Assembly (NCBI GenBank): GCA_029259155.1
Contig: JAPDJI010000009.1
Coordinates: forward strand, 1 to 64,000
Direction: 5' to 3'
Source: Candidatus Methanomethylicia archaeon
GTDB lineage: Archaea; Thermoproteota; Methanomethylicia; Nezhaarchaeales; B40-G2
Length of the DNA stretch: 64,000 nucleotides
Below are positions 27,320 through 57,963 of this stretch, piece by piece (position 1 is the first letter of the stretch; every line of letters begins with the position of its first letter). The notes beneath the pieces were generated by a model that was given only the letters and a program-made list of their open reading frames with translations, had not been told where the DNA came from and did not search any database. A program made the position numbers and the translations under genes.

Positions 27320-27337
27320 GTGTAGAGGGACTGAGCG

Positions 27338-34024: not shown

Positions 34025-34025
34025 A

Positions 34026-35736: not shown

Positions 35737-35739
35737 AGC

Positions 35740-37320: not shown

Positions 37321-37330
37321 ATCACCATAC

Positions 37331-38109: not shown

Positions 38110-38111
38110 CA

Positions 38112-39638: not shown

Positions 39639-39671
39639 CGACGTAAGCGCTCCTCTAAATTCTTTTTTATT

Positions 39672-40223
39672 TCATGGTGTTTTTTGGCTACTGTTTTTCT
39701 TAAGCGTGAAGACAACATAGTTGTCAGCTACCTCTTCGAAGAATGGATTTGTATGAAGTATGTTGAGCGACAGGGATTCTACATATGCTTGAAGCCACTT
39801 AGACCATTTCTCCCCCCACTGATGTCTCAAGATTATCCTCAGCGAGTTCTCTTCGTCGAATACATACATTATAAACCAGTGGCAGTGGTCTTGGAGCACG
39901 GTCTTCATGAAAAACAGTACACCTTCAAGGTCAAGCTTCTTGCCACATAGAGGGATTAATTCTCTCGGTGTTTCAACCCCTCTTTTTCTTGCTATATTTC
40001 TTAGGTCTTCGCCGCTTAGCTTATCTAGAAGGCTGAGAAACGTGAGCCTATTTAACGCAATGGTGTCAAAATGCTCTCTATACCGTCCATATACAACATA
40101 GCCCTCTATTAAGCGGTTAACGAGGCTGTTAACGCTAATTCTCTGCCTTTCTGCCTCTTTCTCAAGTTCGTCTAATAGATGTTTATCTAGCCTAAAGGTT
40201 CGAGGTGTGGACATTTTTAACAC
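39672..40223 (-). CDS. Ribbon-helix-helix DNA-binding protein with a putative C-terminal ligand-binding domain
   Basis: RTFRLDKHLLDELEKEAERQRISVNSLVNRLI; C-terminal HQWGEKWSKW. Confidence 0.75.
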   Translation of the reverse strand: MLKMSTPRTFRLDKHLLDELEKEAERQRISVNSLVNRLIEGYVVYGRYREHFDTIALNRLTFLSLLDKLSGEDLRNIARKRGVETPRELIPLCGKKLDLEGVLFFMKTVLQDHCHWFIMYVFDEENSLRIILRHQWGEKWSKWLQAYVESLSLNILHTNPFFEEVADNYVVFTLKKNSSQKTP

Positions 40224-40314
40224 CTGTAATTCAAAGTACTACATTTAGTATACTTAAAGTTTAACTAAAAGGTTAGCTATCTTTTAGTGGTTAGCAGTGT
40301 AAGCTTTACATGAG

Positions 40315-42263: not shown

Positions 42264-43352
42264 TTATGGTGTGAGGAGTTTCTTGGTTAGTGCACCGCCG
42301 AGTGCTAGTGAAGCTAAAACTATGAACGGCCCTGTAATGTATAATGCAGCGGTCAAGGCGTATAGAGATGTCAAGTGTATAATTACTGCCGCTACAAGAG
42401 TCTCTATAAGCCATTTTATTTTGATAGGTAGTTTCAACCTTCTTCTTTTAGTTAGGGCGGCAGCGGCTATTAATGGCCAGCTGTAAGTTAAGCCTATGAG
42501 TACGCCAGCAGTTATGCCCGCCATGATTACGGCCAGCTCGCTATTGAAGGATAATATGCCGTAAACCTGTCTAGCTACTATGAGGTCTCCTATCAATGGG
42601 TAGAGCATTGCCTTAACGGTGTTCCTTAAAAGTTCATTTCCTCTTTCAGCGCTAGCTACATAGGGGCTCCAAGAGTAGTACCAAACGTTAAATACCTCCA
42701 TAAATCTTTGTCCACCAACGGTCTTCAGGACGTCCTCGTCCCTAAAGCTTCTCAGGAACTGTACTGGGCCTGCTAGCTCGCTTCCAAAGGCAGCTGTAGC
42801 TATGAGGCAGCCTCCTCCTTCACCGCCTGATGGAGCTGGGGTAGATACCTCTACGGTAAGAGAGCTGGTGGCCACGTTAGCAATGCTTTGGAAGTTTTCG
42901 TCGACGAGGGCTACGCTAACAACTTCAATATTCTTCGAGCCGCTTTGTGCCTCGCTATTTACTTGGAAGGTAAGGGTCAACAGCGTTCCTGTCGGTGTAG
43001 GAGGTGTGGTACTTCCACGCCTAGCTATGGCGTAAAGGATAGTTCCTGGGCTTTCAATGTCCTCTAAACCCACTACTGGGTCGTCTCCTAAGAGGTCACC
43101 TATTTGAGCATTGATTAACGTAAAGGCATCTTGATCGTAAGAGATGTTAATTTCACATGCACTTATACCATATCCATGAGGGTTAACCATTATGTTGACC
43201 TCAAATTGTTGACCTGGCTCAACTTGGATCGTTGAAGGCTCAAAGTACACTTCTACTGCCTGTGCTATTACTGAGCCAGCTAGGATTGTGGGTATTAGCA
43301 GTAGAGCTATGAACATTGAAAGCCTGATGGTTTTTGCCTTTAGCTTCTCCAA
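42264..43352 (-). CDS. Secreted/surface protein: signal peptide + cohesin domain + CFI-box-CTERM membrane anchor
   Basis: VEPGQQFEVNIMV..ISYDQ..GTLLTLTFQV (cohesin); GGGCLIATAAFGSELAGPVQFLRSFRD..FNVWYYSWSP. Confidence 0.82.
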   Translation of the reverse strand: MEKLKAKTIRLSMFIALLLIPTILAGSVIAQAVEVYFEPSTIQVEPGQQFEVNIMVNPHGYGISACEINISYDQDAFTLINAQIGDLLGDDPVVGLEDIESPGTILYAIARRGSTTPPTPTGTLLTLTFQVNSEAQSGSKNIEVVSVALVDENFQSIANVATSSLTVEVSTPAPSGGEGGGCLIATAAFGSELAGPVQFLRSFRDEDVLKTVGGQRFMEVFNVWYYSWSPYVASAERGNELLRNTVKAMLYPLIGDLIVARQVYGILSFNSELAVIMAGITAGVLIGLTYSWPLIAAAALTKRRRLKLPIKIKWLIETLVAAVIIHLTSLYALTAALYITGPFIVLASLALGGALTKKLLTP

Positions 43353-43933: not shown

Positions 43934-45688
43934 TTATGTTCTTGAAGCCTTTAGCTTCTTTCTGAGCTCGTCGGTGGCTTTGAGATCTAAAGACATGGTT
44001 TTTGGATCTATTACTACTCCATAGAATTCTTTCGCCTTCTCAAGGGAAACGAATCCGTTGCGTACGTCTTCTAGGACTAGTTGTGGGTCTCTTTCTAATG
44101 GGTCTCCGTAACCGCCTCCTCCCGGTACTAGGCATCTAACTAAGCTGCCTGGAGGAACTACGGCTATCTTTCTTGGGTCTAAGCGCTGCTCGTTTGGTGT
44201 ACCCGGGTTTAATATGAACTCTGACTTGGAGCCAGGTAAGCCTCCGAAGAGCCCTGGTGGACCGAACTCTATCCAGTCGACGACATTAACTATGGTGCAT
44301 GGCTTATCGGTAAGTATTCTGAAGTCTACTATGAGGCCGCAGCCTCCACGATACTTCCCTGCTCCTCCTGAGTCCTGTAGGATCTCTAAGCGCTCGATTC
44401 TTAGCGGGTTAGCGGTCTCTGTAACCTCCACGGGGGTGTTCTCGGCTCTGGGTGGGAAGGCGAAAGCGTGGATTCCATCCTTATTAGGCCTAGCGCCCAA
44501 GCCGCCTGAATGCATAGCCACATGTATGAAAGGCCTTCCTGTCCTTGGGTTGATGCCTGAGAACTGAGGCATGTTACTTTCTCCTCCGCTGGCGGCTAAG
44601 ACACGGTCAGGTATGGCTAAGGATAATGCACCGCAGACGGTGGCGTTTACATGCCATGATAACACGTGCCTAGCTCCTACGGCAGCTGGGAAGTTGGCGT
44701 TTACGATGGTTCCTTCAGGCGCGTAGACCTCGATGGGTCTGAGAGCCCCTTCGTTGAAGGGCAGCTCCGGTGTGAGAGCTCCTTTTATCGCATGGATGGT
44801 ATAGGCGTAGGTGTAGTTGAAGGGACTATTGAGGCCGCTATCAGTCTGGGGTGAAGTCCCGGTCCAGTCTACCTTCATCTGGGGGCCTTTGGCCTCTATG
44901 GTCACCTTCATCTTTAACGTGGTGCCTGGCTGAGGTCCATCGAAAACGTGCTCCCACGTGTAGGTTCCTTTAGGTACGCTCTCCAGCGCTTTCCTTGTGG
45001 CCTCCTCCGTGATGGTTATGATAGCCTTGGCTAAGTCAGTGAGGTCCTCTAGCTTAGCGTCTTTCATGAACTCCTTGAGCCTGCGCTCGGCTACGAAGTT
45101 AGCTGCCAGCTGGGCCTTAATGTCGTTAAGTAGAGTCTTAGACATCCTTACGTTGGCGGTTATCATCTTTAAGGTGTCTTCGTTGGGCTTGCCGGCCTTG
45201 TAGAGCTTATGCATAGGTATGAGGATGCCTTCCTCGAAGATTATCCTCGAGTCAGCTATGTGGCCTCCTGGTGCTCGGCCACCTATGTCTGAGTGGTGGG
45301 CGATGTTTAGGGCGAACGCTACGAGTTTCCCTTCGTGGAAGATGGGTGAGATCATTACTAGGTCTGGTAGGTGGCCTGAGCCTAGCCAGGGATTGTTGGT
45401 GGCGATTACGTCGCCTGGCTCTAAGGTCTCAGGTGGGTACTCCTCGAAGAGGCTTTTCATGATTTTAGGCACAGAGCCTAAGTGTCCTGGGCTTCCTACC
45501 CAGTCGGTTTGTGCGAGCATGTTTCCTTCAGCGTCGAACACAGCGCAGGAGAAATCGTTGGCTTCTCTTATCAGCTCAGAGTAAGCGGTGCGTTTCAAGG
45601 TTATGGACATCTCTTCGACTACGGAGAGCAGCCCTCCCCATAGGATCTCAAGCCTTACAGGGTCAAAACCATAAGCCACCTCTACCAC
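43934..45688 (-). CDS. Hydantoinase B/5-oxoprolinase family subunit
   Basis: RTAYS..REANDFSCAVFD, GHLPD, HHSDIGG, SGGAGKYRGG, PGGGGYGDPLERD. Confidence 0.93.
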   Translation of the reverse strand: MVEVAYGFDPVRLEILWGGLLSVVEEMSITLKRTAYSELIREANDFSCAVFDAEGNMLAQTDWVGSPGHLGSVPKIMKSLFEEYPPETLEPGDVIATNNPWLGSGHLPDLVMISPIFHEGKLVAFALNIAHHSDIGGRAPGGHIADSRIIFEEGILIPMHKLYKAGKPNEDTLKMITANVRMSKTLLNDIKAQLAANFVAERRLKEFMKDAKLEDLTDLAKAIITITEEATRKALESVPKGTYTWEHVFDGPQPGTTLKMKVTIEAKGPQMKVDWTGTSPQTDSGLNSPFNYTYAYTIHAIKGALTPELPFNEGALRPIEVYAPEGTIVNANFPAAVGARHVLSWHVNATVCGALSLAIPDRVLAASGGESNMPQFSGINPRTGRPFIHVAMHSGGLGARPNKDGIHAFAFPPRAENTPVEVTETANPLRIERLEILQDSGGAGKYRGGCGLIVDFRILTDKPCTIVNVVDWIEFGPPGLFGGLPGSKSEFILNPGTPNEQRLDPRKIAVVPPGSLVRCLVPGGGGYGDPLERDPQLVLEDVRNGFVSLEKAKEFYGVVIDPKTMSLDLKATDELRKKLKASRT

Positions 45689-45691
45689 CTC

Positions 45692-47758
45692 CTATAAGGT
45701 TATGAGCACGTTTCCGTAATCATCCATGGTTACCTTCGCTCCTGGGACTACCACGGTCGTGGACTCCCTCTCCTCTATGATAGCTGGCCCTTCTACTTCT
45801 ACGCCTGGATACATCTTGTAGCGGTCGTAGACCTTGCAGTCTACGTATTCGTTGTACTCAGAGAAGTATACTTTCCTGGTTCCCTTAAGTGGGTCTCGAC
45901 GCTCTGCGGATAGCTTCTTGAACTTTACCCTAGGTACCTTTCCTACGGCGAGTAGCCTCCAGTTAACAGCCTCGATAGGGTCGCCGGTGACGTATCCGTA
46001 GGCTTCCTCATACACCTTCGTGAACCTCGCCTCTAGCTCCTTCACAACTCCTTCGTTAAGCTCTCCTTCAGGCAGCCTAACGTTCAGCTCGTAGGCTTGT
46101 CCTACATACCTTAGGTCGACGGTCCTGATCATCTCGTAATCGGTCACGCCAGCTATCTTGAGTAGCCTTAGCCCTTCCTCCTCCATCTCGCTGTATAAGC
46201 GCTTAACGTAGCTCCAGTCTATTTTATCAATTCTTGAGACGTACGTCTTGACGAAGTCGAACTTGACGTCAGCGGCCAGCAAACCTACAGCTGAAGCGAC
46301 GCCTGCGAGCGTGGGGATAACTACTTTCTTAATCTTCAACTGCTGGGCCATCCTGACAGCGTGGAGTGGGCCTGCGCCTCCGAAGGCTATGAGGGCGAGG
46401 GTTCCAGGGTCTCTTCCTCTCTCCACGGACACTGCTCTCATGGCTCTAGCCATGTTCGCGACGACGACGTCGTAGATTCCTCGAGCAGCCTCCACCAAGC
46501 TCATGCCTAACGGCTTGGCTACTTTTTCCTCTATTGCCTTCGCAGCTTTTTCAGGGTATAGCTTCATCTCTCCTCCTAAGAAGTACTCAGGGTTTAAGTA
46601 TCCGAGCACGAGGTTAGCGTCGGTTACGGTGGGTTCCTGCCCTCCCAGACCATAGCAAGCTGGGCCTGGGTCGGCTCCAGCGCTTTGAGGGCCTACTTTT
46701 AATAGGCCCATCTCTACGTGGGCTATGCTTCCTCCTCCAGCGCCTATCTCTATGAGGTCCACGGTCGGTACTTTCACAGGGTAGCCGCTCCCCTTCTTGA
46801 ACCTGTAACCTCCTACTTCGAAGATTGTGGTTATCCTTGGTTCGCCGTGCTCGATAAGGCAGCACTTAGCTGTGGTTCCTCCCATGTCGAAGGATAGCAG
46901 GTTCTCCTCGCCCATCAACCTCCCTATGAACGCTCCTGCTAACGCTCCTGCTGCGGGACCTGACTCGAGTAGTCTGACGGGGAATCGCGCTGCGGTCTCT
47001 ACGGCCATGGTTCCTCCGCCAGCGGACATGATGAAGAGCCTTCCGGCACACTCCTCTTTCTTTAAGCCCTCCTCCATGGTTCTGAGGTAACTCTCTGTCT
47101 TAGGCTGGGTGTAGGCGTTTACTACCGTTGTGGAGAGCCGCTCGTATTCTCTCCATTCAGGCAATACTGAGGAGGAGATGGATACGAAAACGTTGGGGAA
47201 CTCCTTCTTTATCAGCTCCTCTACTTCTTGTTCATGCTTGGGGTTGGCGTACGAGTGTATGAAACAGACGGCTATGGCCTCTACTCCCATGTCTACTAAT
47301 TCCTTCACCACTGCCTTCACGTTGTCTATGTTGAGTGGTTTAACGACGCTGCCGTCGAAGTCTACCCTCTCGTCCACTTCCTTCCTTAGGTATCTGGGAA
47401 TTAAGGGAGGTAGGCGTTCCTCAAAGAAGTCGTATTGCGTAACTCGCCGTTCACGGTCTATTTCCAATATGTCCTTAAACCCTTTAGTGGTTATGAGCCC
47501 TGTCACTGCTCCTTTATGTTCGATGACCGTGTTTGTCACTACGGTGGTGGCGTGGATTACTGCGGTTAGCTGAGAAGGATGAACATTATTTTCTCGAAGG
47601 ATCCTACGGAATCCTTCGAAGGCTCCTATAGAAGGGTCTTGTGGTGTGGAGAGGACCTTACCAACACTTACCTCACCGGTTTCTTCGTTTATCAGTACTA
47701 AGTCTGTGAAGGTCCCGCCGATATCTATGCTCAATCTAAAACGTTTAGTTGGGCTCAA
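45692..47758 (-). CDS. Hydantoinase A/5-oxoprolinase ATP-binding subunit
   Basis: IDIGGTFTD, HATT, ESGPAAG, DMGGTT, GAGGGS, SAGADPGPACYG, FGGAGPLH. Confidence 0.94.
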   Translation of the reverse strand: MSPTKRFRLSIDIGGTFTDLVLINEETGEVSVGKVLSTPQDPSIGAFEGFRRILRENNVHPSQLTAVIHATTVVTNTVIEHKGAVTGLITTKGFKDILEIDRERRVTQYDFFEERLPPLIPRYLRKEVDERVDFDGSVVKPLNIDNVKAVVKELVDMGVEAIAVCFIHSYANPKHEQEVEELIKKEFPNVFVSISSSVLPEWREYERLSTTVVNAYTQPKTESYLRTMEEGLKKEECAGRLFIMSAGGGTMAVETAARFPVRLLESGPAAGALAGAFIGRLMGEENLLSFDMGGTTAKCCLIEHGEPRITTIFEVGGYRFKKGSGYPVKVPTVDLIEIGAGGGSIAHVEMGLLKVGPQSAGADPGPACYGLGGQEPTVTDANLVLGYLNPEYFLGGEMKLYPEKAAKAIEEKVAKPLGMSLVEAARGIYDVVVANMARAMRAVSVERGRDPGTLALIAFGGAGPLHAVRMAQQLKIKKVVIPTLAGVASAVGLLAADVKFDFVKTYVSRIDKIDWSYVKRLYSEMEEEGLRLLKIAGVTDYEMIRTVDLRYVGQAYELNVRLPEGELNEGVVKELEARFTKVYEEAYGYVTGDPIEAVNWRLLAVGKVPRVKFKKLSAERRDPLKGTRKVYFSEYNEYVDCKVYDRYKMYPGVEVEGPAIIEERESTTVVVPGAKVTMDDYGNVLITL

Positions 47759-47830
47759 GCGTTCTCCTCTCCTCTACTTATGAGGGAGGACTAGGGTTCA
47801 AGAGTTTATAAATTTTATAGTAGGTGATGG

Positions 47831-49006
47831 TCACCCGTATAGTCCCAGCTCCCTGGCTATTATGTCGTTATTTATCTCCGTCGTTCCTCCTCCTAGATAT
47901 AGGCCTCCCGCGTCCCTAAAGAACCTATTGACAGGTACTTCACTCGAGAAGCCTAGAGCTCCGTGTATCTTCCAGCCTATGTCGACTGCTCTGAAAGCCA
48001 TCTCGCAGGCAGCGTTCTTAGCCATGGCGGCGGGCATTATAGCTTCACGAGACTCTCTGCCTTTCTGGTCTAAGATCCATGCAGCCCAGTAGACCATGAG
48101 CCTTGCAGCCTCCAGATCTGTTCGGAGAAACGCGAGCTTATGGGCTATGGACTGGAATCTGCCTATAGGCCTACCGAAAGCTATGCGTTGTTTTGCGTAG
48201 TTTAACGCTTCTTCGAAGGCTGCTTCAGCTATTCCTAACGCCAGTGCCCCCGTCACTACTCTTATCTCGGCTAGGATGCCTTGAAGGTACTTTCCTCCTA
48301 CACCGGTGCCTGCTAATGCCATCTTTGCTGGCACCCTAACGTTGTCTAAGGAAAGCTCAGCTTCTTTGAGGCCTCTCATCCCATACTTTGGAATGTGTCT
48401 TCCTACCTGGAAGCCTGGAGTGTCTCTATCGACGACGAAGAAGTCTATGCCCCAGAATTTCTTGCTCTTGTCCGTCATTGCCCCTATTATGAAGAAGTCG
48501 GCGTAAGGAGCTCCAGTACACCAAGTTTTACTGCCGTTTAGAATGAAGTAGTCTCCGTCCCTTACAGCAGTAGTCTTCATGGATCCTAAGTCAGAGCCGG
48601 CTTCAGGCTCAGTGACTGAGAAAGCTCCGTGCTTCGTCCCTTTGATGGCAGGTACTAGGTAGTTTTCCTTGACCTCGTCGTCACCGTACTTCGCTATGAA
48701 GTCGGTGGACTGAAATGCTTGCATGGTGACCTGGAAGGCTACAGGTAATGACCCCCGCGCTATCTCTTCACAGAAGAGGCAGAAGGTCAATACATCGCAG
48801 TTAGAGCCACCGTACTCCTCTGGGTACCTGAGGCCGAAGAACCCCATTTCAGCGAACTTCTTCCATAGCTCCTCGGGGAACTCGTCGGTCTCGTCTATGT
48901 GAGCGGCTAGGGGTTTGACCTCGTTTTCCACGAACCTCCTGACTGTTTCTTTGAAGAGTTCTTGTTCTTCGGTTAACTTAAAGTCCAAGCCCTCCACCTC
49001 TGGCAA
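47831..49006 (-). CDS. Acyl-CoA dehydrogenase
   Basis: FSVTEPEAGSD, LNGSKTW, RIAFGRPIGRFQ, HGALGF, GGGTTEI. Confidence 0.94.
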   Translation of the reverse strand: MPEVEGLDFKLTEEQELFKETVRRFVENEVKPLAAHIDETDEFPEELWKKFAEMGFFGLRYPEEYGGSNCDVLTFCLFCEEIARGSLPVAFQVTMQAFQSTDFIAKYGDDEVKENYLVPAIKGTKHGAFSVTEPEAGSDLGSMKTTAVRDGDYFILNGSKTWCTGAPYADFFIIGAMTDKSKKFWGIDFFVVDRDTPGFQVGRHIPKYGMRGLKEAELSLDNVRVPAKMALAGTGVGGKYLQGILAEIRVVTGALALGIAEAAFEEALNYAKQRIAFGRPIGRFQSIAHKLAFLRTDLEAARLMVYWAAWILDQKGRESREAIMPAAMAKNAACEMAFRAVDIGWKIHGALGFSSEVPVNRFFRDAGGLYLGGGTTEINNDIIARELGLYG

Positions 49007-49531
49007 GGCTAATAGTAGGATTTGAAGGTTTATAGGGTTTATTGAAACTTTTCCATGGGCTGCGCCAAGCTATAACCATGCCCGATTCGATAGCTGGAGT
49101 TTTTCTTTACCGTCGGATGGTTCGTACATCTTCAACAAAAATATAATCGTGTGAGTATCTCTCCCTTATTCTCTTAAGAGATGCATCCACCATGAGTTTT
49201 ATTCAATATTGTTATATGTTATTCTCCATGCCTTATATGATTGTATGTAACTGTATTATTCTTATAAAAATATGGATTTTGGCGGCTTCCTATGCTGACT
49301 TTACTAGCAAGTATAGGCCTTGTAACCTCGAGTTTTTCCTCCAAAGGAGGATAGGCCTGGAACGAAGGCTCCATGAATAATCCCTGAAAAACCCTGATGT
49401 CTGTCCATTAAGAAAAACATCACGCAACGTTGATGGTCAAAAGCTAGGATATAAAATGGTCAAGCTCCGCAGGTAATCGTTAGGTTCAAATACTTTATCC
49501 TTATCTCCTACTTCATAGTTGGTGGGGGTCC

Positions 49532-51214
49532 TTGTTTAAGGAAGAGGAACTTGCACGGATAAAGGAAGAACAAGAGAAATGGCTTCAGGGCCCCGTGAAG
49601 AGGACCTTAGAGAAAACTCCTGAGCGTCGCAAGGAATTCAAGACCTACTCAGGGATACCTCTAAAGGCCATATACACCCCTGAGGACATTAAAGACCTGG
49701 ACTACTTGAGGGACCTAAACTTTCCAGGCCAATTCCCCTACACTCGTGGCATCTACCCCCTCATGTATAGGACTAGGCTATACACCATGCGTCAGTACTC
49801 GGGCTTCGGTACGGCAGAGGAGACTAATGCTAGGTTCAAGTACTTGCTTAAGCACGGCGAGACAGGGCTCAGCATAGCCTTCGACCTACCTACTCAGATG
49901 GGCTACGACCCTGACCATCCCTTAGCGAGAGGGGAGGTAGGTAAGGTAGGTGTCTCGATAAGCACGCTTCATGACTACCAGGTGCTTTACAGAGACATAC
50001 CTATGGATAAGATTAGTGTGCATATCCAGGCTAACGCCAATGCTATCTTCATGCTCGCCATGCATATAGCTGAAGGATTAAACCGAGGCCACCAACCTAA
50101 GGATCTCTGGGGTGCTTGCCAGAACGATATCTTGAAGGAGCTTATTGCTCGAGGTGCTTACATCTACCCGCTCGGCCCCTCTATGAGGCTGTGGGGCGAC
50201 GTCGTAGAGTACTGCGTCAAGAACATGCCTAGGTGGCAGCCCGTTACGGTGTGTCAATTCCATATCCAAGAGGCTGGAGCAAACCACGTTACTGCTTGGG
50301 GTTTAAGTTTAGCCAATGCCATCGCTTACGTTGAGGAAATGTTGAAGAGAGGTTTACCGATCGACGACTTTGCTTTTAACATCTCGGTATGGAACATAGT
50401 ATGTGGACCAGAGCTCTTCGAGGCGGTATGTGGGATTAGGGCAGCTAGGAGGCTATGGGCTAAGATATTGAAGGAGAGGTTCCATGCTAAGCGACCAGCA
50501 TCCATGATGATGAGGATCTTCATGGGCTCCGGAGGCTTTCAGATGACAAGGGCTGAGCCGCTTAACAATGTCGTTAGAGGCACTATCTCAGCCATAGCTG
50601 GAGCCCTAGGGGGAGTCCAAGCCATGAACATCCAGTGTTACGACGAGGCTTACGCTATACCTACCGATGAAGCCATTAAGCTAGCTCTACGCACAGAACA
50701 GATCATTGCTTACGAATCTGGCGTGACCGATGTAATAGACCCATTAGCTGGCTCCTACTTCGTAGAATGGCTTACTAACCAGATAGAGAAGGAGCTTGAA
50801 AGCATCATAGAGGAAATAGACTCGATGGGAGGAGCTGTTGAGGCGATAAGAAAGGGCTACATGCAAAGGATAATCCTACAACAGGCCTATGAATACCAGA
50901 GACGCATAGACAAAGGTGAGCTCATAAGGGTCGGGGAGAACATCTTCGCGGCTGAGGAACATACGCCCATAAAGACCTTTGAGGTTAGACCTGAAGTGGA
51001 GAAGGAACGCGTGGAGTGGATTAGAAAGTTCAGGGAGTCGCGTGATAACAAGAAGGTGAAGGAATCTTTAGAGAAGCTACGTAAAGCAGCGGAGACCAAC
51101 GAGAACCTGGTGCCATATGTGATAGAGGCTGTAAGGGCTAACGCTACGGTAGGTGAGATGGCAGATACCTTAAGGGAGGTCTTCGGCACAGCTGAGGACC
51201 TTGCTGCTCTATGA
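49532..51214 (+). CDS. B12-dependent acyl-CoA mutase, substrate-binding subunit (MCM-like, divergent active site)
   Basis: PGQFPYTRG, MRQYSGF, AFDLPTQMG, QNDILKELIARG, FHIQEAGA, DPLAGSY. Confidence 0.93.
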   Translation: MFKEEELARIKEEQEKWLQGPVKRTLEKTPERRKEFKTYSGIPLKAIYTPEDIKDLDYLRDLNFPGQFPYTRGIYPLMYRTRLYTMRQYSGFGTAEETNARFKYLLKHGETGLSIAFDLPTQMGYDPDHPLARGEVGKVGVSISTLHDYQVLYRDIPMDKISVHIQANANAIFMLAMHIAEGLNRGHQPKDLWGACQNDILKELIARGAYIYPLGPSMRLWGDVVEYCVKNMPRWQPVTVCQFHIQEAGANHVTAWGLSLANAIAYVEEMLKRGLPIDDFAFNISVWNIVCGPELFEAVCGIRAARRLWAKILKERFHAKRPASMMMRIFMGSGGFQMTRAEPLNNVVRGTISAIAGALGGVQAMNIQCYDEAYAIPTDEAIKLALRTEQIIAYESGVTDVIDPLAGSYFVEWLTNQIEKELESIIEEIDSMGGAVEAIRKGYMQRIILQQAYEYQRRIDKGELIRVGENIFAAEEHTPIKTFEVRPEVEKERVEWIRKFRESRDNKKVKESLEKLRKAAETNENLVPYVIEAVRANATVGEMADTLREVFGTAEDLAAL

Positions 51215-51635
51215 GGAGGTGTTTGAGCTGGGTAAGCTCAAGGTGTTGATGGCTAAGCCTGGCCTTGACGGCCACGATAGAGGGGCCAAGGTAGTGTCCA
51301 CGGCGCTTAAGGAAGCTGGCTTTGACGTGATCTATACGGGGAGACATAAGTCAGTGGATGAAATAGTGTCCATGGCTCTTAATGAGAACGTTGACGTAAT
51401 AGGGTTAAGCATACTTTCAGGCGTACACCTTGAAGTCTCACAGGAAGTCCTTAAACAGCTTAAAGAGAAAGGACGCGACATTCCAGTGGTGGTAGGTGGA
51501 GTAATACCTGATAAAGATATACCGAAGCTCAAAGAGATGGGTGTGATCGAAGTCTTTCCAGTGGGTTCAAGGCTCGAAGACATAGTAAAGTTCTTCGATA
51601 AGCTGGCTGAGGAGAAAGCAAAGAAAACTAAATGA
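51201..51635 (+). CDS. Acyl-CoA mutase cobalamin-binding small subunit
   Basis: KPGLDGHDRG (DxHxxG), SILSGVH, VGGVIP; real start probably a few codons downstream. Confidence 0.95.
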   Translation: MLLYEEVFELGKLKVLMAKPGLDGHDRGAKVVSTALKEAGFDVIYTGRHKSVDEIVSMALNENVDVIGLSILSGVHLEVSQEVLKQLKEKGRDIPVVVGGVIPDKDIPKLKEMGVIEVFPVGSRLEDIVKFFDKLAEEKAKKTK

Positions 51636-52842
51636 TCTTTTTCTCCTTCAACCTCTTCAGCTCCTCTTTACTTAGACCCAGCTTCTCACAGTATATCTCT
51701 TCATTATGTTCGCCTAGCCTAGGCGGAAAGCCTAGCGGTAGCTTGGTTAGTTCTTTCTGTGCTTCCATCGTAGATGGCGGTGGTAGGTAGATCTCTACGC
51801 CTGTCTTGAGGTCTTTAGACTTTAGCATTCTATCTGAGACTAAGGGGTCGTTGCATACGTCTTCGAGCGTGTTTATCTTGGTCGAGGGTATTCTGGCTTC
51901 ACTAAGCATGTTTAGGAGTTCTTGGCTTCCGAGGTTAACGGTTATCTGAGAGATCCTACGGATTAGATTATCGGCATCTGCTCTACGTCCTTCATTGGTG
52001 GCATACCTGTCTTCGCGCAGCTCCTTGAATGGAGGCAGCTGAGTAAAGTCTTCCCACTGTCTATCGTTGCCTATAGCTATGTATACGTAGCCATCTTTTG
52101 TGGGAAACACGTCGACCGGCGTGAAGAACGGATGGCGATTGCCCGTCCTGACTATCTTTTGCCCGAACGACTTATGGTGAGGCAGCTTGGTTATGAGCCA
52201 GCTCACAGTGCTATGAAACATGGAGACATCAATCCTACTGCCCTTCCCCGTCACTGCCCTCTTGTAGAGAGCTTTCAGGATCTCAGAATAGGTGTGCTCA
52301 CCGGCCGCCAGGTCGGCTATTGGAATGCCCGGTATCATAGGTGGGCCGTCAGGCTCGCCTGTTAGATCCATGACTCCTGCCCTTGCTTGAAGGATGGGGT
52401 CATAGGCAGCCTCCACGATGTCTGGACCGAAGCCTGTTACGCCTACCCATATTATGTCTTCCTTCACCTCCTTTAAGGTCTCATAGTCAATTCCTAGCTT
52501 CTTGTAGCGGTGTGGTAGCTGATTGGTTGCGAAGACATCGACGTTAAGCTTGACAATTATCTTCTTTAACAGCTCCCTCCCTTCCCCTTCGGCTAGGTTT
52601 AAGGTTATGGACTTCTTGCCCACGTTGTAGGGGAGGAAGTAGGTGTTCATGCCCTCCTCCCCCAGCACGTTCTTTCCCACGAACCTGTTAGGGTCGGGCA
52701 TCAATGGGTTTTCAAGCCTTATTACCGTAGCTCCTTCCAAGGCGAGCTTGTAGGTGGTGTATGGTAATGTTAAGGCTTGCTCCAAGGTTAAGACGGTTAC
52801 TCCCTTTAGTGCTCTTTCAGCCAAAGCTATACACCTTACCAA
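51628..52842 (-). CDS. Family III CoA transferase (CaiB/BaiF)
   Basis: GKKSITLNL, KLGIDYETLK, TGFG, YDPILQARAG, IADLAAG (catalytic Asp), PRLGEHN. Confidence 0.93.
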   Translation of the reverse strand: MVRCIALAERALKGVTVLTLEQALTLPYTTYKLALEGATVIRLENPLMPDPNRFVGKNVLGEEGMNTYFLPYNVGKKSITLNLAEGEGRELLKKIIVKLNVDVFATNQLPHRYKKLGIDYETLKEVKEDIIWVGVTGFGPDIVEAAYDPILQARAGVMDLTGEPDGPPMIPGIPIADLAAGEHTYSEILKALYKRAVTGKGSRIDVSMFHSTVSWLITKLPHHKSFGQKIVRTGNRHPFFTPVDVFPTKDGYVYIAIGNDRQWEDFTQLPPFKELREDRYATNEGRRADADNLIRRISQITVNLGSQELLNMLSEARIPSTKINTLEDVCNDPLVSDRMLKSKDLKTGVEIYLPPPSTMEAQKELTKLPLGFPPRLGEHNEEIYCEKLGLSKEELKRLKEKKII

Positions 52843-52894
52843 GGAGGTATTCTCGTCAAGCTTAACTTTTTCTTAAATAAAAAGATGGTTTACA

Positions 52895-54499
52895 TTAACT
52901 TTTCCTTCCTTCCTTCGGGAACCCTCCATACTGTTCTCTAAGCACTCTGTGGAGTATCTTCCAGCCGCCCATCTTAGGTAAGCTATCGACGAATATCACC
53001 GCTCTAGGTACCTTATATCCCGCGAGCCTCTCCTTGCAGAACTCTATGATCTCTTCTTCAGTAGCTGTCTCGCCCGCCTTGAGAACGATGGCAGCTGCTG
53101 GCAGCTCTCCTCGTTTCTCGTCGTACTTTGCAAACACTGCTGCCTCAGAGACCTTGGGGTGCTTGAGCAACACGTTCTCTACTTCAGCTGGGTAGATCTT
53201 CCACCCAGACATTATAATCATATCCTTCTTCCTACCGGTCACGTAGAGCACCCCTTCTTCATCCAGATACCCTGTGTCTCCTGTCAGGAACCAGCCATCG
53301 GGTAGGAAGGCTTCCTGCGTCTCTTTGGGCCTCTTCCAGTAGCCTTTAGCTACTGATGGGCCTCTAAGAGCTATTTCGCCTACTTCACCAGGAGGAAGTT
53401 CTTTTGAAGGATCTGCCTCATCGACTATCTTGACCTCGCAGTACCCTACAGGTGCTCCTACGCTTCGGTAACCCTTAGACATATGGGAAAACCCTACTGG
53501 GACGGCAGGAGCAGTTCCCACAACTATGGTTTCTGAGAGGCCGTAGGCGTTGACAACCTCTATGTTCGGGTACCGTCTAACAAACTTCTCCCATATCTCC
53601 TGTGGTGTGGGAGCTCCACCTGTTATGATGCGCCTAACGGTCTTCAAGTACTCTTCAGTGCCGGGGGGAGCGTTGACGAGAGCGTGGAGTACAGGCGGCA
53701 TTCCAGACAGTATGGTAGCCCTATACTCACGCGCGAACCGTAGGTAGTCGTTGAACTCGTAGCGATCCATGATTACGAAGGTGGCTCCATACCTAAGCGC
53801 CGTTATCCCCCAGCTGACTCCTACGTGGAAGTGCGGGTAGAAGCCTAGGTATACATCGTCCTCCGTCAACCTCAAAACCCAGCGCTCCGTCTCAACGGCT
53901 GACATCCAATTTCCGTGGGTTAACATAGCTCCCTTGGGGAAGCCCGTCGTACCGGCTGTGTACTGTATTTGGCAGAGATCATCGGCAGAGCAATTTTCAG
54001 GCCTCATCTTAGGTTCTCCCTTCTCGATTAACTCCCTCCATGATATCGTCCCTTCAACAGCCTTATCTAGCAACACGATGTTCTTTAGGTTCGGTGTGTC
54101 TGACTTGACCTGTGAAATCACCTCCTTGTAGGCCTGCTCCAACGTTATTATGGTGTTAGCCTCTGAGTCGTTGAGTATGTGGCGCATTTCTTCGCTTCTA
54201 AAGGTTGGATTAGCTGGCACGGCTATGGCTCCTATCCTCCATATAGCGAAGTAGCTAATTATGGTCTCAGGTCTACTACCAGTATAGACACAGACTCGGT
54301 CTCCTTTGCTTATACCTAGGCTCTTTAACCCGTTGGCGAGTCTATTTACTTTCTCTAATAGGTCCCTGTAGGTATACAGCTCGTGGCGCTTCGGCTCGAC
54401 CATGGCTACCTTGGCTGAGTAGTAATGTACGTTGACGTCTAGGAACGAGGTGAAGTTGGGCATCCTCTTTCCCCCTCTTTTACCACAGTTAACATGCAC
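52895..54499 (-). CDS. AMP-forming acyl/aryl-CoA ligase
   Basis: YTAGTTGFPKG, AYGLSE, TGD, GRKKDMII, YKVPR; start likely the ATG of MPNF. Confidence 0.93.
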   Translation of the reverse strand: MHVNCGKRGGKRMPNFTSFLDVNVHYYSAKVAMVEPKRHELYTYRDLLEKVNRLANGLKSLGISKGDRVCVYTGSRPETIISYFAIWRIGAIAVPANPTFRSEEMRHILNDSEANTIITLEQAYKEVISQVKSDTPNLKNIVLLDKAVEGTISWRELIEKGEPKMRPENCSADDLCQIQYTAGTTGFPKGAMLTHGNWMSAVETERWVLRLTEDDVYLGFYPHFHVGVSWGITALRYGATFVIMDRYEFNDYLRFAREYRATILSGMPPVLHALVNAPPGTEEYLKTVRRIITGGAPTPQEIWEKFVRRYPNIEVVNAYGLSETIVVGTAPAVPVGFSHMSKGYRSVGAPVGYCEVKIVDEADPSKELPPGEVGEIALRGPSVAKGYWKRPKETQEAFLPDGWFLTGDTGYLDEEGVLYVTGRKKDMIIMSGWKIYPAEVENVLLKHPKVSEAAVFAKYDEKRGELPAAAIVLKAGETATEEEIIEFCKERLAGYKVPRAVIFVDSLPKMGGWKILHRVLREQYGGFPKEGRKS

Positions 54500-54551
54500 G
54501 GCTAGTTTTTTCTTTTTAAGGCTTGCCGTCCCGCGTCATGGAAAGTATACT

Positions 54552-55091
54552 TCAATACTCTATGCCCTTCCTTCCCACTATGCCCTTCCTCCATGGATGC
54601 TTAATCTCATTGAACTCAGTGACGTAGTCAGCTTCTTCATATAGCTGAGGAGGAGCTCCTCGTCCGGTGAGGACTAGTTCAACATGTTCAGGCTTCCTCC
54701 TAATAAGCTTCAGTACTTCATCGAGCTTTACTAAGCCGTAATCCAGCGCTACGTTGACTTCATCTAGTATGACTAGGTCGTAGCGCCCACTCACAACAGC
54801 TTCCTCAGCTTTCCTCAACGCTTCCTCTGCTAGCTTAACATCTATATCCTCAGGTCCCTCCTTATCCACGAACTCTTCCCTCCCGAACTGTAAGACTTCG
54901 ATTCCTGGTACGTACCTTACAGCCTTAAGCTCGCCGTATTCTCCCTTTTTCATGAATTGAACTATCAAGACCTTTAGCCCTCTCCCTGCGGCTCTAAGGG
55001 CTAAGCCGAAGGCTGAAGTGGTCTTGCCTGGGCCATTGCCTGTCTTGACGTGGATCAATCCTGTTTTTAACCTAGCTTGCTCCTCGGACAT
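54552..55091 (-). CDS. cobO: Cob(I)alamin adenosyltransferase (CobO/BtuR type)
   Basis: TGNGPGKTTSAFGLALRAAG, QFMK, ILDEV, LTGR, KHP..GIEY. Confidence 0.94.
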   Translation of the reverse strand: MSEEQARLKTGLIHVKTGNGPGKTTSAFGLALRAAGRGLKVLIVQFMKKGEYGELKAVRYVPGIEVLQFGREEFVDKEGPEDIDVKLAEEALRKAEEAVVSGRYDLVILDEVNVALDYGLVKLDEVLKLIRRKPEHVELVLTGRGAPPQLYEEADYVTEFNEIKHPWRKGIVGRKGIEY

Positions 55092-55195
55092 TTCGGCTCA
55101 CATCGGCCTAACTTAAACCGTGAAGCCATATAAATTTTCAGTAAAGAACAGTCGACTGAAATGAGGAGAAGGTCTGTAAAAAGGAAGGGGGATGT

Positions 55196-56098
55196 TTACT
55201 CCTTGGGTATCCCAAAGTAGTCGTAGAAGCCTCCCTTGCTCTTGGGGTTGTACTTTTTGTCTCCTAGGTATCCTGCTTTAACTAGCTTCTTTAGTATTAA
55301 GGGTGGTGCGTAGCGTGGGTCTCCTGTCTCTTGGAATAGGTATTCCATGACGTGGAGCTGTACATCTATACCTGCCATGTCGTGGAGCTCGAAGGGACCC
55401 ATGGGCATGTTGAAGCAGAGCTTAGCCATTTGATCTATTTCCTTTATGCCTGCTATGCCAGCTTCGAAGAGCCTAAACGCTTCACCTGCCCAGGCAGCGA
55501 ACCATCTTGAAGTGAAGAAGCCTGGACCATCGTTGACCACTATGGGTACCTTGCCTATCTTTTTACAGAACTCCACGGCTAGGTCGATGGTCTCCTGTGA
55601 GGTCAAGGCTCCCTTAACTACCTCAACACCTCTCATGATGGGTACGGGGTTGAAGAAGTGGAGCCCTACAAACCTATCGGGCCGGTTAGTGGCAGCGGCC
55701 ATGTCGGTTATCATTAACGACGAGGTGTTGGAAGCGAACACTGTTCGTTCAGGGCATATTTCATCTAGATCTTTGAAGAGTTTCTTTTTCAGGTCCATGA
55801 CTTCAGGGACTGCTTCTATCACCAGGTCAGCGTTGCTGCTAGCTTCTTGGAGGCTGGTGGTGGTTTTGATTCTGGCTAAGGCTTCCTCCACTTCTTTCTC
55901 TGTGAACTTCCCTTTGGCAACTAGCCTACTCATGCTTCCCTTTATGAAGTTGATGGAGAATTTCAGCGCGTCCTCGCTGATGTCCATTAATACCACTTGG
56001 AAACCGGACCTAGCTACGACCTCCGCTATGCCGCTGCCCATTCTTCCTGCTCCAATTTGCGCTACTACTTTTACTTCGTCTATTTTCACTTGGCTCAC
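55196..56098 (-). CDS. 3-hydroxyacyl-CoA dehydrogenase
   Basis: IGAGRMGSGIA, IEAVPE, ASNTSS, GLHFFNP, MPMGPFEL. Confidence 0.94.
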   Translation of the reverse strand: MSQVKIDEVKVVAQIGAGRMGSGIAEVVARSGFQVVLMDISEDALKFSINFIKGSMSRLVAKGKFTEKEVEEALARIKTTTSLQEASSNADLVIEAVPEVMDLKKKLFKDLDEICPERTVFASNTSSLMITDMAAATNRPDRFVGLHFFNPVPIMRGVEVVKGALTSQETIDLAVEFCKKIGKVPIVVNDGPGFFTSRWFAAWAGEAFRLFEAGIAGIKEIDQMAKLCFNMPMGPFELHDMAGIDVQLHVMEYLFQETGDPRYAPPLILKKLVKAGYLGDKKYNPKSKGGFYDYFGIPKE

Positions 56099-56132: not shown

Positions 56133-57005
56133 TTAATGAAGCTTCTCCGCCAACCTGCCGCTCTTCAGTGTATGATACTTCATTCCTACCTCGTCTAAGC
56201 TCATCTCCATGGCTAACCCTATGAGCTGTGTCAAGTACAATACAGGCGTATCCAATGTTTCATTGAATTTCCTGGAAGCCATGACCTGCCCTACATCCAG
56301 TTGGATCAGGCAAGTGGGACATAGCACCGCTATACAGTCGGCTTCAGCTTTTCTAATCTCCAAGGTTTTCTCTCTCACCATTGATAAGGAGAGCTCTTCA
56401 TCAACAGGCCTTATGAAGGCACCGCAGCATAACCCCTCGGAGGGGTAATCTACGACCTCGCAGCCCAAGGCTCTTAAGAGGCTCTTAAACACCTTAGGGT
56501 TCTTAACGTCGTCGTAGTGGCTGAGCTCATCGTAGATATGGCAACCATGGTGTACTGCCACCTTCAACTTTTTCAGCGGCCTGGTTATGCTCTTCGATAA
56601 AGCCTCTAGCCCGACTTCCTCGTAGAGCACCCTGAGTATGCTCTTCACTTTCACCTTTCCTTCATAGCTCTTTTCTACGCTTTCCAAAACCTTGTTTACG
56701 CTCTCCCTAAGCCTTCGATTCGACTTAAGGTCCTCCGCTACCCTAAAAAGCGTAGCATTGCAGCCGTTACAGAGCGTCAATATGTCTATGCCTTCCATCT
56801 CTGCTACCGCTAAGTTCCTGGCGGCTAAGGCATACCAAACCATTTTATTTAGCATCTTCATGGTGGTAGGCTCGGGGCAGCACGTAAAGCCATTTAACCT
56901 TCTGATCTTAATTCCAAGCCTAGCTAGAACCTCGACTGAAACTGCCTCTAAGTGAGGGAGCCTCTGATATATAAGGCACCCTGTGAAGAGAGCATACTTC
57001 TTCAT
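56133..57005 (-). CDS. hdrB: Heterodisulfide reductase subunit B-like
   Basis: FTGC, TCCP, AARNLAVAE, CNGC, HHGCH, CCG, CPTCLIQLDVGQ. Confidence 0.92.
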   Translation of the reverse strand: MKKYALFTGCLIYQRLPHLEAVSVEVLARLGIKIRRLNGFTCCPEPTTMKMLNKMVWYALAARNLAVAEMEGIDILTLCNGCNATLFRVAEDLKSNRRLRESVNKVLESVEKSYEGKVKVKSILRVLYEEVGLEALSKSITRPLKKLKVAVHHGCHIYDELSHYDDVKNPKVFKSLLRALGCEVVDYPSEGLCCGAFIRPVDEELSLSMVREKTLEIRKAEADCIAVLCPTCLIQLDVGQVMASRKFNETLDTPVLYLTQLIGLAMEMSLDEVGMKYHTLKSGRLAEKLH

Positions 57006-57386
57006 TTGGACTCCTCTATGAGCTTTAAGAACCCAAGCTTCTGGTAGATCTTGACGGCCTCCTCGGAGCTGAACTTAAGCTCTGGGAGGTTAAGGTCACG
57101 CCGCCTCTTCAAGGCCATAGAGGTTACGGGGGCGGAGAGTCCTCCTTTAGCTATGGAGGCGGCTACTGCCTTAAACCCATCTATTAGTGGGGCGAGCTTC
57201 TTGAACCTTAATACAGCCACCATGGGAAAGGATAGCCCTATACCTGTCAGCTCCCATGGTCTTCTAGCGTAACTCATGAAGGTTGAACGGTGGATCCTCA
57301 TTTCACATCACATTTATTACTCCGGATACGCGGCAGGACTTATTTATCCTTTGGTGCAGGGAGACTGCTCCTTCCAATTCCTCTAT
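57002..57386 (-). pseudogene. hdrC: Decayed hdrC (C-terminal helical tail kept, FeS motifs lost)
   Basis: Tail KRRRDLNLPEL..EEAVKIYQKLGFLKLIE resembles the HdrC C-terminus and overlaps the hdrB start; upstream remnant IEELEGA..SCRVS..*..FNLHEL with stops. Confidence 0.62.
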
Positions 57387-57450: not shown

Positions 57451-57963
57451 GTGGTAAGTTTGAAGAAGCTGGTCTTCCGCCCAGAACGCTGCACAGGGTG
57501 TAGAGCATGTGAGCTAGCGTGCAGCTTCTTCTGCGACGGCGTGTTTTCACCGACGAGGTCTAGGATCAGGGTGGTTAGGATTGACGAGGAGGGCATTGAT
57601 GTACCTATAGGCTGCGCACACTGCGATAACGCCCCTTGCATGTTGGTATGTCCATCCCCACTAGCCATGTATAGGGATAAAGACACGGGCGCCGTTGTCA
57701 TAAATGTGGATGCTTGCATAGGCTGTAGGTCTTGTATGTTAATATGCCCCTTCGGCGCTATAAATCATGACGCGGAAAAAGGCTTCTGCTACAAGTGCGA
57801 CCTCTGTCACGGTGACCCAGAGTGCGTTAAGTGGTGTTTCACTAAGGCCATAGAGTACGTGGAGGACGAGGAGATACGTAGAAGTAAGCGTTCACGCGTA
57901 GCTGAGGAGGTAGCTAAGGTATCGTTAGAGGCAGCTAGGTTCATTAAGCCTGGTAAGGGGTGA
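57451..57963 (+). CDS. 4x[4Fe-4S] electron-transfer subunit (AorA/DmsB-like)
   Basis: CTGCRACELAC, CAHCDNAPCMLVCP, CIGCRSCMLICP, KCDLC..PECVKWC. Confidence 0.92.
   Translation: MVSLKKLVFRPERCTGCRACELACSFFCDGVFSPTRSRIRVVRIDEEGIDVPIGCAHCDNAPCMLVCPSPLAMYRDKDTGAVVINVDACIGCRSCMLICPFGAINHDAEKGFCYKCDLCHGDPECVKWCFTKAIEYVEDEEIRRSKRSRVAEEVAKVSLEAARFIKPGKG

Follow-up and report, generated by a model that had tools for sequence, protein, structure and literature searches.

Gene content of the locus

The 64,000-nucleotide window analysed here (positions 1 to 64000 of contig C9) belongs to a 1.55-Mb archaeal genome of 47 contigs, 94% complete, and carries a gene cluster that resembles the anaerobic indoleacetate (iaa) degradation module. 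Its core is a block of nine genes spanning 43934-56098. At the left end lie the beta subunit (HydB, 43934-45688, minus strand; Pfam PF02538 Hydantoinase_B, 543 bits) and the alpha subunit (HydA, 45692-47758, minus; three Hydantoinase_A domains, including the N and C domains) of an ATP-dependent lactam hydrolase. They are followed by a putative decarboxylating (aryl/alkyl)malonyl-coenzyme A (CoA) dehydrogenase of the IaaF type (47831-49006, minus), an acyl-CoA dehydrogenase with the C-terminal sequence LGGGTTE. The plus strand then encodes the large subunit of a B12-dependent acyl-CoA mutase of the 'RIFxGSGG' type (MutL, 49532-51214; MM_CoA_mutase, 610 bits) and its B12-binding small subunit (MutS, 51201-51635; PF02310; TIGR00640 at 143 bits, above cut-off), in which the DxHxxG motif reads DGHDRG. 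Back on the minus strand, the block closes with a family III CoA transferase that may, like IaaL, act on (aryl)succinyl-CoA (51628-52842; PF02515, 273 bits), an AMP-forming acyl-CoA ligase of the 4-coumarate/FadD type (52895-54499; Pfam and NCBIfam), an ATP:cob(I)alamin adenosyltransferase CobA/CobO (54552-55091; TIGR00708, 175 bits, above cut-off) and a 3-hydroxyacyl-CoA dehydrogenase (55196-56098; PF02737 and PF00725). CobA/CobO would supply adenosylcobalamin to the mutase, and the 3-hydroxyacyl-CoA dehydrogenase would act in beta-oxidation of a cinnamoyl-type product.

A preliminary description of this DNA had named these nine genes, and the open reading frame listing, Pfam and NCBIfam confirm that all are present, contiguous and at these positions. 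Its comparison with the central iaa module also agrees with the family membership of the set. The block stands as described, although not as the full extent of the cluster: an aldehyde oxidoreductase (AOR) with its iron-sulphur (FeS) partner at 57451-59975 and a redox module at 20500-29240 belong with it too.

The origin of the DNA is consistent with the archaeal assignment made at the outset, as the nearest database proteins, by source name, come from metagenome-assembled genomes (MAGs) of Candidatus Nezhaarchaeales/Nezhaarchaeota (84-89% identity). Base composition along the window shows no break. A 10-kb part of the cluster is near-identical (0.74-0.98 of sampled words) in six hydrothermal vent or sediment metagenome runs, one of which possibly represents the source DNA. 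Comparisons drew on four sister genomes (G001-G004, 92-98% complete) within a set of 41 relatives that includes these four and the source genome itself (G000).

McrA (PF02249) was not found in G000-G004, which make up the two cluster-bearing families; in the third family of the order, 4 of 10 genomes have it. Aromatic-degradation genes thus mark those lineages of the order in which mcr was not found. We regard the host as an uncultured, non-methanogenic Nezhaarchaeales archaeon of hydrothermal or marine sediment and the cluster as catabolic.

The GGG-type dehydrogenase

IaaF is described as an enzyme that dehydrogenates and decarboxylates benzylmalonyl-CoA, and its subclass, which includes Ferroglobus placidus WP_012966786, has GGG where other acyl-CoA dehydrogenases have YEG (both in PMC8360864). 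The window dehydrogenase, whose start probably lies at 48988 (giving 385 aa), ends in ...LYLGGGTTEINN and thus shows GGG instead of YEG, the IaaF signature. It is 53% identical to the Ferroglobus protein (WP_012966786.1/ADC66449.1). Across 121 sequences, namely the best 120 homologues and the query, the C-terminal motif is xGGG in 115, xGAG in five and unparsed in one, with no case of YEG. A quick tree with two outgroup rows places 28 GGG rows apart from the genome's own two YEG/TEG paralogues with a support of 99, and the Nezhaarchaeales and Bathyarchaeia enzymes form one of several GGG sub-clades within it. The gene is flanked by HydA and the mutase in the window, as it is in 7 of 11 metagenome loci. 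Its distribution is narrow: among the 41 relatives, only G000-G004 carry an IaaF-type gene at 70% identity or more, and a sample of 401 genomes drawn from the phylum yielded the type in 5. On its signature, the window dehydrogenase is assigned to the IaaF type.

Loci with a GGG dehydrogenase were gathered from one genome scan and two archaeal groups. Four of these (L151-L153 and L009) combine the dehydrogenase with a mutase, some together with a transferase or electron-transfer flavoprotein (ETF), and have no lactamase within 10 kb. The succinyl-to-malonyl-to-enoyl module probably also serves other substituted succinates.

Conservation of the cluster

The preliminary description expected the genes to co-occur in other genomes, and they do. 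The block from HydB to AOR is syntenic in G001 and G002, and partial in G003 and G004, where contig ends interrupt it. A metagenome search with HydB returned 11 loci, of which seven also carry a GGG dehydrogenase (five of those seven with a 'RIFxGSGG' mutase), two are too short and two stop right after HydB-FeS. Among 80 listed loci from the dehydrogenase search, HydA/B accompany 2 of 5 GGG dehydrogenases and none of the 75 others, 8 of which have an unparsed motif.

The most distant loci, L160 and L162, are Bathyarchaeia-type metagenome contigs by source name and have a rearranged gene order. There, genes for a thioesterase, DUF35 protein, thiolase, fused dehydrogenase/hydratase, CoA transferase and a URO-D-family protein precede HydA, HydB, the dehydrogenase, MutL, MutS, FeS, AOR, IorB and IorA, with an aminotransferase in L160 only. 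The gene arrangement is not due to chance, because the block is syntenic in three sister genomes and recurs rearranged in these distant contigs.

The URO-D-family gene (uroporphyrinogen decarboxylase/methyltransferase, 270 bits), located at L160:6517-7605 between CoA transferase and HydA, has no counterpart in the window cluster. URO-D enzymes decarboxylate acetate side chains of pyrrole rings, and the position of such a gene next to an indoleacetate-type pathway is suggestive.

Two further types of locus served as reference. In L011, from a Sphingomonadales MAG, the genes run HydA-HydB-ACAD-MutS-MutL, and those of a three-subunit molybdenum (Mo) hydroxylase come next. The locus was taken as the canonical iaa type because its order fits the lettering iaaC(D)E-F-GH-IJK. 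G832 and G815, of an unrelated archaeal lineage, combine canonical-type Hyd and Mut genes with the redox genes discussed below. Their order is FeS-AOR-CoA transferase-HdrA-like-HdrA/MvhD-like-CCG protein-small hydrolase-like protein-OYE, and then HydB-HydA-dehydrogenase-MaoC-SDR-MutS-MutL-IorA-IorB.

The mutase, lactam hydrolase and CoA-handling enzymes

The closest solved structure to the mutase large subunit is HcmA (496 bits), ahead of the methylmalonyl-CoA mutases (MCMs, 366-386 bits); all three are two-subunit adenosylcobalamin mutases. With P. shermanii numbering read off the alignment to 1REQ, the window mutase retains Tyr89, Gln197, Arg207 and His244 of MCM, where HcmA has Ile at Tyr89 and Gln at Arg207. 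It should bind a substrate with a free carboxylate, unlike HcmA, because these four residues are retained. Other substrate contacts of MCM are changed: Tyr243 is replaced by Phe, 'RIFMGSGG' stands at MCM 'R(T/A/F)H(S/C/T)QTxG' (such as 'RTHSQTSG' or 'RFHTQTxG'), and 'NIQC' stands at 'HTNS'. These positions presumably line the MCM substrate pocket. The latter two motifs of MCM are also missing from all seven canonical iaa-type mutases, where other sequences stand in their place ('(K/R)MIA(G/A)GGGGG' and 'ALC(S/C)'); like the window mutase, those enzymes retain Arg207 and Tyr89. The pocket thus appears remodelled with the carboxylate-binding Arg kept.

A tree of 38 mutases resolves three clades: the iaa type (7 rows, support 100), the window clade (13 rows, support 100) and the canonical MCM clade (17 rows, support 96). 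The window mutase therefore falls outside the canonical MCM clade, as the preliminary description required of its assignment. Its clade comprises, by source name, Nezhaarchaeales, Bathyarchaeia and one Nitrososphaerota sequence, and the canonical clade holds Bathyarchaeia homologues at 53-54% identity.

In a separate cluster that recurs at L005, L033 and L041, genes for YEG/GEG dehydrogenases accompany those for a mutase, CobO and 3-hydroxyacyl-CoA dehydrogenase. At the positions of Tyr89 and Arg207, the mutases of these loci carry Phe and Gln, respectively, the isobutyryl/hydroxyisobutyryl-CoA mutase pattern. Because of these loci, the association of mutase, CobO and 3-hydroxyacyl-CoA dehydrogenase is by itself not specific to iaa.

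IaaCE is a hydantoinase-like enzyme according to PMC8453981. The window HydB is the only HydB in the genome. HydA scores highest in the PDB with N-methylhydantoinase (471 bits) and caprolactamase 6YRA (388 bits), with ketone carboxylases at 303 bits or less. By score it would group with ATP-dependent lactamases and not with ketone carboxylases, and the two-subunit HydA/HydB architecture is common to the window enzyme, caprolactamase CapAB and N-methylhydantoinase, which are its best family and structure matches. Caprolactamase models give 570 bits (CapA) and 276 bits (CapB) for the window proteins against a cut-off of 1000. Across loci, the window type reaches 530-570 (CapA) and 276-291 (CapB), compared with 668-698 and 396-397 for the canonical type, all below cut-off.

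The functions of transferase (IaaL), mutase (IaaGH), dehydrogenase (IaaF) and ligase (IaaB) are assigned in PMC8360864. The window transferase is 53% identical to that of L009, the ETF-containing locus, and 49% to the G832 transferase beside AOR. Over the other GGG loci its identity is 42-53%. The CoA ligase named in the preliminary description is present. It is of the 4-coumarate/FadD type and is kept within clusters in Nezhaarchaeales loci only; none of the other iaa-type loci examined has a counterpart.

The tungsten oxidoreductase and associated redox genes

To the right of the block lie an HdrB-like CCG-domain protein (56133-57005, minus; kept in G001 and G002) and a 99-aa open reading frame (57002-57301, minus; kept in G001), together possibly an electron outlet. 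The small frame was considered as HdrC and rejected, as it has no Cys and no family match. Next come a 4Fe-4S dicluster subunit (57451-57963, plus; Fer4_11) and the AOR-family oxidoreductase with which it is paired, a predicted tungstopterin enzyme of 671 aa (57960-59975, plus; AFOR_N and AFOR_C).

This pair recurs elsewhere. The FeS subunit adjoins AOR in G001, G002, L157, L160, L162, G832, G815 and G195, the last with the order IorA-IorB-FeS-AOR, and the FeS gene directly follows HydB in L158 and L159. FeS-AOR stands beside cluster genes in three arrangements, those of Nezhaarchaeales, L157 and L160/L162. The AFOR_N/AFOR_C domains and an FeS partner subunit are shared with P. furiosus AOR, A. 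aromaticum AorAB and BamB. The window gene scores 402-414 bits with AORs and 238 bits, in two stretches, with BamB (4Z3W), and its identification as BamB was rejected on these scores. Aligned against P. furiosus AOR, it retains Glu313, His448 and the four cysteines of the Fe-S cluster.

The enzyme nevertheless stands apart from ordinary AORs. It is at most 41% identical to the other AORs of its own genome and at most 44% to any in the 36 remaining relatives, with about 45-65 extra residues. Orthologues at 83% or more are confined to G000-G004 among the 41 relatives, with the next best at 44%. About 85 of the best 120 database clusters share 56-88% identity with it at a length of roughly 660-690 aa, and the rest share 44% or less. 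The group has a long stem in the tree and comprises, by source name, Nezhaarchaeales, Hecatellaceae, Thermoplasmata, Methanomassiliicoccales and Planctomycetota. These features define a distinct AOR subfamily, predicted to use tungsten and to belong with the cluster. The best standard AOR of the genome, in contrast, is an 841-aa frame at C16:8855-11359, seemingly fused to or preceded by extra sequence; frames of 830-860 aa like it occur in many relatives.

The second redox set lies further left. It starts with an OYE/FadH-family Fe-S flavoenzyme (20500-22488, minus; OYE and Pyr_redox domains) resembling 2-naphthoyl-CoA reductase (NCR), and continues on the plus strand with an HdrA-like protein (22551-24017), an HdrA-like protein with an MvhD domain (24014-26086), an FeS/CCG protein (26093-27319), a NarI-like membrane protein (27338-28078) and a second FeS/CCG protein (28053-29240). 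NCR, a type III aryl-CoA reductase, reduces bicyclic aryl-CoA esters (PMC6502838). The window flavoenzyme matches NCR (6QKG) over its full length at 530 bits, compared with 287 bits for FadH. It differs from NCR in setting, as no polycyclic aromatic hydrocarbon pathway genes were seen and the flavoenzyme co-occurs with an iaa-type cluster. The G832/G815 cluster contains genes whose products match the OYE, HdrA-like and HdrA/MvhD-like proteins at 69%, 67-68% and 60-63% identity. OYE orthologues at 82% or more are found only in the five cluster-bearing genomes (G000-G004) of the 41, with the next best at 43%. The module at 20500-29240 belongs with the cluster and travels with it in Nezhaarchaeales. 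The neighbours of the G832 cluster (FeS, two HdrA-like proteins, an MvhD domain and a CCG protein) resemble the composition of BamBCDEF.

Hydroxylase, entry and exit genes in the genome

IaaIJK of the Aromatoleum iaa cluster is a xanthine-oxidase-type hydroxylase. The preliminary description found no such enzyme in the window, which we confirm, and none occurs in the four sister genomes either. Mo hydroxylase genes are likewise found in none of 15 variant-type loci, and are present in the canonical-type L011, L151 and the end of L004. PF02738 has no match in G001-G004, G832, G815, G195 or G855, and two matches in G073.

The AOR subfamily is present in G000-G004, G832, G815, G195 and G061 and was not found in G073, G855, G042, G043, G191, G122 or G235. 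Among genomes tested for both, seven have the AOR only, three the Mo enzyme only, one has both and one neither. These counts represent about three independent lineages per side, and the Mo evidence for G042 is a partial FeS-subunit match at the end of L004. The occurrence of the AOR subfamily and of the Mo hydroxylase is thus largely complementary.

Possible entry enzymes are encoded elsewhere. The genome search for indolepyruvate oxidoreductase that had been proposed found IorAB above NCBIfam cut-offs on contig C12. L160/L162 have IorAB flanking the cluster, 62-63% identical to the genome's IorA, and IorAB also occur in the canonical-type loci L004, L148 and L151. The C12 locus (C12:34000-49007, L116) further encodes a second AMP-forming ligase of 548 aa (about 31% identical to the cluster ligase), a double-cubane/2-hydroxyacyl-CoA-dehydratase-like pair, an aromatic-acid-type MFS protein and a branched-chain-type ABC transporter. 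It looks like a second aromatic amino acid locus.

Downstream functions lie on contig C17, where the genes of a class I benzoyl-CoA reductase of the Bzd type are accompanied by Had-like, dehydrogenase and hydratase genes. BzdO (599 bits) and BzdQ (386 bits) score above cut-off, and BzdN (383 bits) below. All 5 cluster-bearing genomes have BzdO, which was found in none of the 36 other relatives; among kin, this contrast represents few independent events. Genes of the HGD-D/benzoyl-CoA reductase type were found in 6 of 6 other archaeal genomes tested. An AOR/Hdr set acting as the sole ring reductase is not required, given BzdNOPQ in the genome and the HGD-D/benzoyl-CoA reductase-type genes in the six others. 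The genome also encodes two ETF pairs, on C7 and C10.

Proposed pathway and alternative explanations

Taken together, the cluster is best read as an archaeal variant of the iaa central module, fed by tryptophan or indoleacetate and draining into benzoyl-CoA metabolism, to which we assign a probability of about 0.6. We infer each reaction from family membership, sequence signatures and co-occurrence. The preliminary description had this archaeon degrade tryptophan-derived indoleacetate, or another lactam, into benzoyl-CoA genes of the same window. The iaa reading is largely right, but the benzoyl-CoA genes are not in the window: BzdNOPQ lie on C17, and the window AFOR gene scores as AOR and not as BamB.

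An indole-3-acetyl unit would arise from tryptophan through IorAB (C12), or free indoleacetate would be activated by the cluster ligase. Oxygenation at C2 would then yield the lactam 2-oxindole-3-acetyl-CoA, which HydAB would open with ATP to (2-aminophenyl)succinyl-CoA. The family III transferase would shift CoA to the other carboxyl, and the adenosylcobalamin mutase, served by CobO, would form (2-aminobenzyl)malonyl-CoA. Oxidation and decarboxylation by the GGG-type dehydrogenase would give 2-aminocinnamoyl-CoA, which a hydratase, the 3-hydroxyacyl-CoA dehydrogenase and a thiolase would convert into 2-aminobenzoyl-CoA and acetyl-CoA. BzdNOPQ would continue from 2-aminobenzoyl-CoA.

The C2 oxygenation would take place without the usual Mo hydroxylase. 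The conserved candidates for this step are the AOR/FeS pair and, together with Hdr-like partners, the NCR-like flavoenzyme. One proposal is that the tungsten AOR/FeS pair replaces IaaIJK and oxygenates C2 of indoleacetyl-CoA, which is tentative and leans towards doubtful. The route would involve, for example, oxidation of a hydrated imine or a ring-open aldehyde tautomer to the lactam or arylsuccinate. The AOR may be coupled to both the Hdr-like module and the NCR-like flavoenzyme, and AOR/FeS could belong, together with that flavoenzyme, to a larger redox complex linked to Hdr. It is also chemically plausible that the NCR-like enzyme dehydrogenates indoleacetyl-CoA to a conjugated 3-ylidene-indolenine, to which water is then added at C2.

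A different role for AOR/FeS is that of an arylacetaldehyde:ferredoxin oxidoreductase, oxidising indole-3-acetaldehyde (from indolepyruvate decarboxylation) to indoleacetate for the ligase. Ring oxygenation would then fall to something else, or 2-oxindole-3-acetate would be taken up directly. The best scores with aldehyde oxidoreductases, the retained P. furiosus residues, the neighbouring IorAB in G195 and L160/L162, and the ligase of the window cluster are all in keeping with this role, and we consider it a serious possibility at somewhat less than even odds. It accounts poorly for the sharp separation of the subfamily, with its gap between 56-88% inside and 44% or less outside and its long stem. 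Moreover, the AOR is kept in IorAB clusters without ligase (L160, L162, G832), where the free acid is not needed, and is largely complementary to the Mo hydroxylase where both were tested.

Several observations weigh against the iaa-type reading as a whole. The canonical label is defined by the gene order of L011 and by Ferroglobus IaaF only, and the compared loci include no Aromatoleum sequence. HydA is 38-40% identical to the canonical iaa-type loci, which are 50-58% alike among themselves; the values for HydB are 29-32% and 67-70%, and those for MutL 42-48% and 62-77%. The substrate could differ from that of iaa because the HydA, HydB and MutL lineages diverge in this manner. The lactamase is, by these identities, a separate lineage from the canonical loci, so that its suggested orthology with IaaCE reduces to membership of the same family. 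The mutase cannot be kept as an IaaGH orthologue either, given its separate clade, and the tree does not settle the branching among the iaa-type, window and canonical clades. The mutase is also the sole MCM-family gene in the genome, and a housekeeping role is thus formally possible. The genomes that share the cluster are close kin and may represent one or two evolutionary events. No Oah/BamA-type ring hydrolase scores above cut-off in the genome (best 144 bits against 464). Indolepyruvate oxidoreductase and ligase can work anabolically in archaea, as stated in PMC6737245.

The search for iaaIJK-type genes adds a further point, since it found one xanthine-oxidase-family trio (C20:15094-22741) beside XdhC, MoeA and adenine deaminase. 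The trio comprises FAD, 2Fe-2S and Mo subunits, and the best model for the Mo subunit is 4-hydroxybenzoyl-CoA reductase alpha (640 bits, cut-off 995). Because the four sister genomes lack it, the enzyme was either gained recently or misplaced here by binning. As the pathway hydroxylase it is unlikely to be a general solution, in view of its XdhC/MoeA/adenine deaminase context and the lack of PF02738 in all four sisters.

The divergent lactamase and mutase lineages raise the alternative that the same module chemistry acts on another N-heterocycle or lactam from hydrothermal, hydrocarbon-rich sediment. Examples would be a derivative of oxindole or quinolinone, or the CoA ester of a carboxylated bicyclic N-heteroaromatic compound, pre-reduced by the NCR-like enzyme. 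The conserved flavoenzyme, closest at 530 bits to 2-naphthoyl-CoA reductase (PMC6502838), would suit such a substrate, as would the occurrence of the stretch in hydrothermal vent and sediment metagenomes, and the loci with GGG dehydrogenase and mutase but no lactamase (L151-L153) point to wider use of the module. Nonetheless, two further lineages have IorAB next to clusters of this type, once with an aminotransferase, and the cluster showed neither a UbiD-type nor any other carboxylase. We are aware of no second natural lactam whose opening would yield a substituted succinate, and we judge this alternative unlikely. A chance neighbourhood of housekeeping genes (5-oxoprolinase, methylmalonyl-CoA mutase for propionate, fatty-acid beta-oxidation) is very improbable: the lone MCM-family gene and the generic NCBIfam assignments, with no equivalog cut-off reached for Hyd, dehydrogenase, transferase or ligase, would fit it, but the dehydrogenase lacks the catalytic Glu (GGG) and is found in 5 of 401 phylum genomes, which is no housekeeping spread, the mutase has remodelled pocket motifs in a clade of its own, and the gene set recurs rearranged in other lineages.

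Comparison with known systems

In the iaa reading, the closest known system is the iaa operon of Aromatoleum aromaticum and Azoarcus evansii, with which the window cluster shares the enzyme families of the central steps (PMC8453981 and PMC8360864) and the GGG motif of the dehydrogenase. Relative to Aromatoleum, it adds the tungsten AOR/FeS pair, the HdrB-like protein and CobO. From canonical-order loci it differs in the lineages of lactamase and mutase and in having no Mo hydroxylase in the cluster. Ferroglobus placidus, compared by its IaaF protein only, is likewise an archaeal and strictly anaerobic host with a GGG IaaF orthologue. Operons of Ferroglobus and of sulfate reducers are reported to include a dedicated non-bifurcating ETF (PMC8360864), whereas the window cluster is without ETF.

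Nezhaarchaeales and Bathyarchaeia are usually discussed for methane or fermentative metabolism, and no link of Nezhaarchaeota or Bathyarchaeota to an indoleacetate pathway was found in the literature searched. The cluster would extend the anaerobic route from auxin or tryptophan to benzoyl-CoA to Thermoproteota, namely to non-methanogenic Nezhaarchaeales and, by source names, Bathyarchaeia. Three enzyme groups appear worth characterising: the mutase clade with the remodelled pocket, the divergent ATP-dependent lactamase and the AOR subfamily linked to IorAB and iaa. If the proposed roles are true, the AOR would be the first enzyme of its family to act as an N-heterocycle 'hydroxylase', and the mutase clade and lactamase lineage would be new and independently recruited for arylsuccinyl-CoA chemistry. 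The cluster also offers natural material for two questions: by what means an indole ring gains oxygen when no molybdenum hydroxylase is involved, and to which acceptor IaaF passes its electrons in strict anaerobes. The electron acceptor of the Aromatoleum IaaF is stated as unknown in PMC8360864.

Other genes of the window

Near the left end of the window, an enoyl-CoA hydratase (4696-5691, plus), a thiolase (5859-7025, plus) and its DUF35/OB-fold partner (7022-7450, plus) have orthologues at 88%, 73% and 54% identity in metagenome contig L163, where they stand directly upstream of HydA. The genes at 4696-7450 are candidates for the remaining beta-oxidation steps.

Between the redox module and the core block lie genes that may serve uptake and regulation of the same system. 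These comprise a cNMP/CBS/DUF294 protein (29979-31907), placed between the Hdr/OYE module and the core cluster, and, within 32606-41553, three sodium:solute symporter genes, a MarR/NMT1-like protein (34270-35361) and an MFS transporter (40315-41553, plus; PF07690). The last has a 73%-identical copy beside HydB in G001 and L155 and is likely a substrate importer. A cohesin-domain protein (42264-43352) separates the MFS transporter from HydB; it has no full-length counterpart at this place in G001 and a weak partial match in L154.

An Rfam scan of the window returned no family above threshold. At 10560-12193, a large subunit of aconitase X is paired with its swivel-domain partner, and two genes of the metallo-beta-lactamase fold come next; all of these are apparently unrelated to the cluster.

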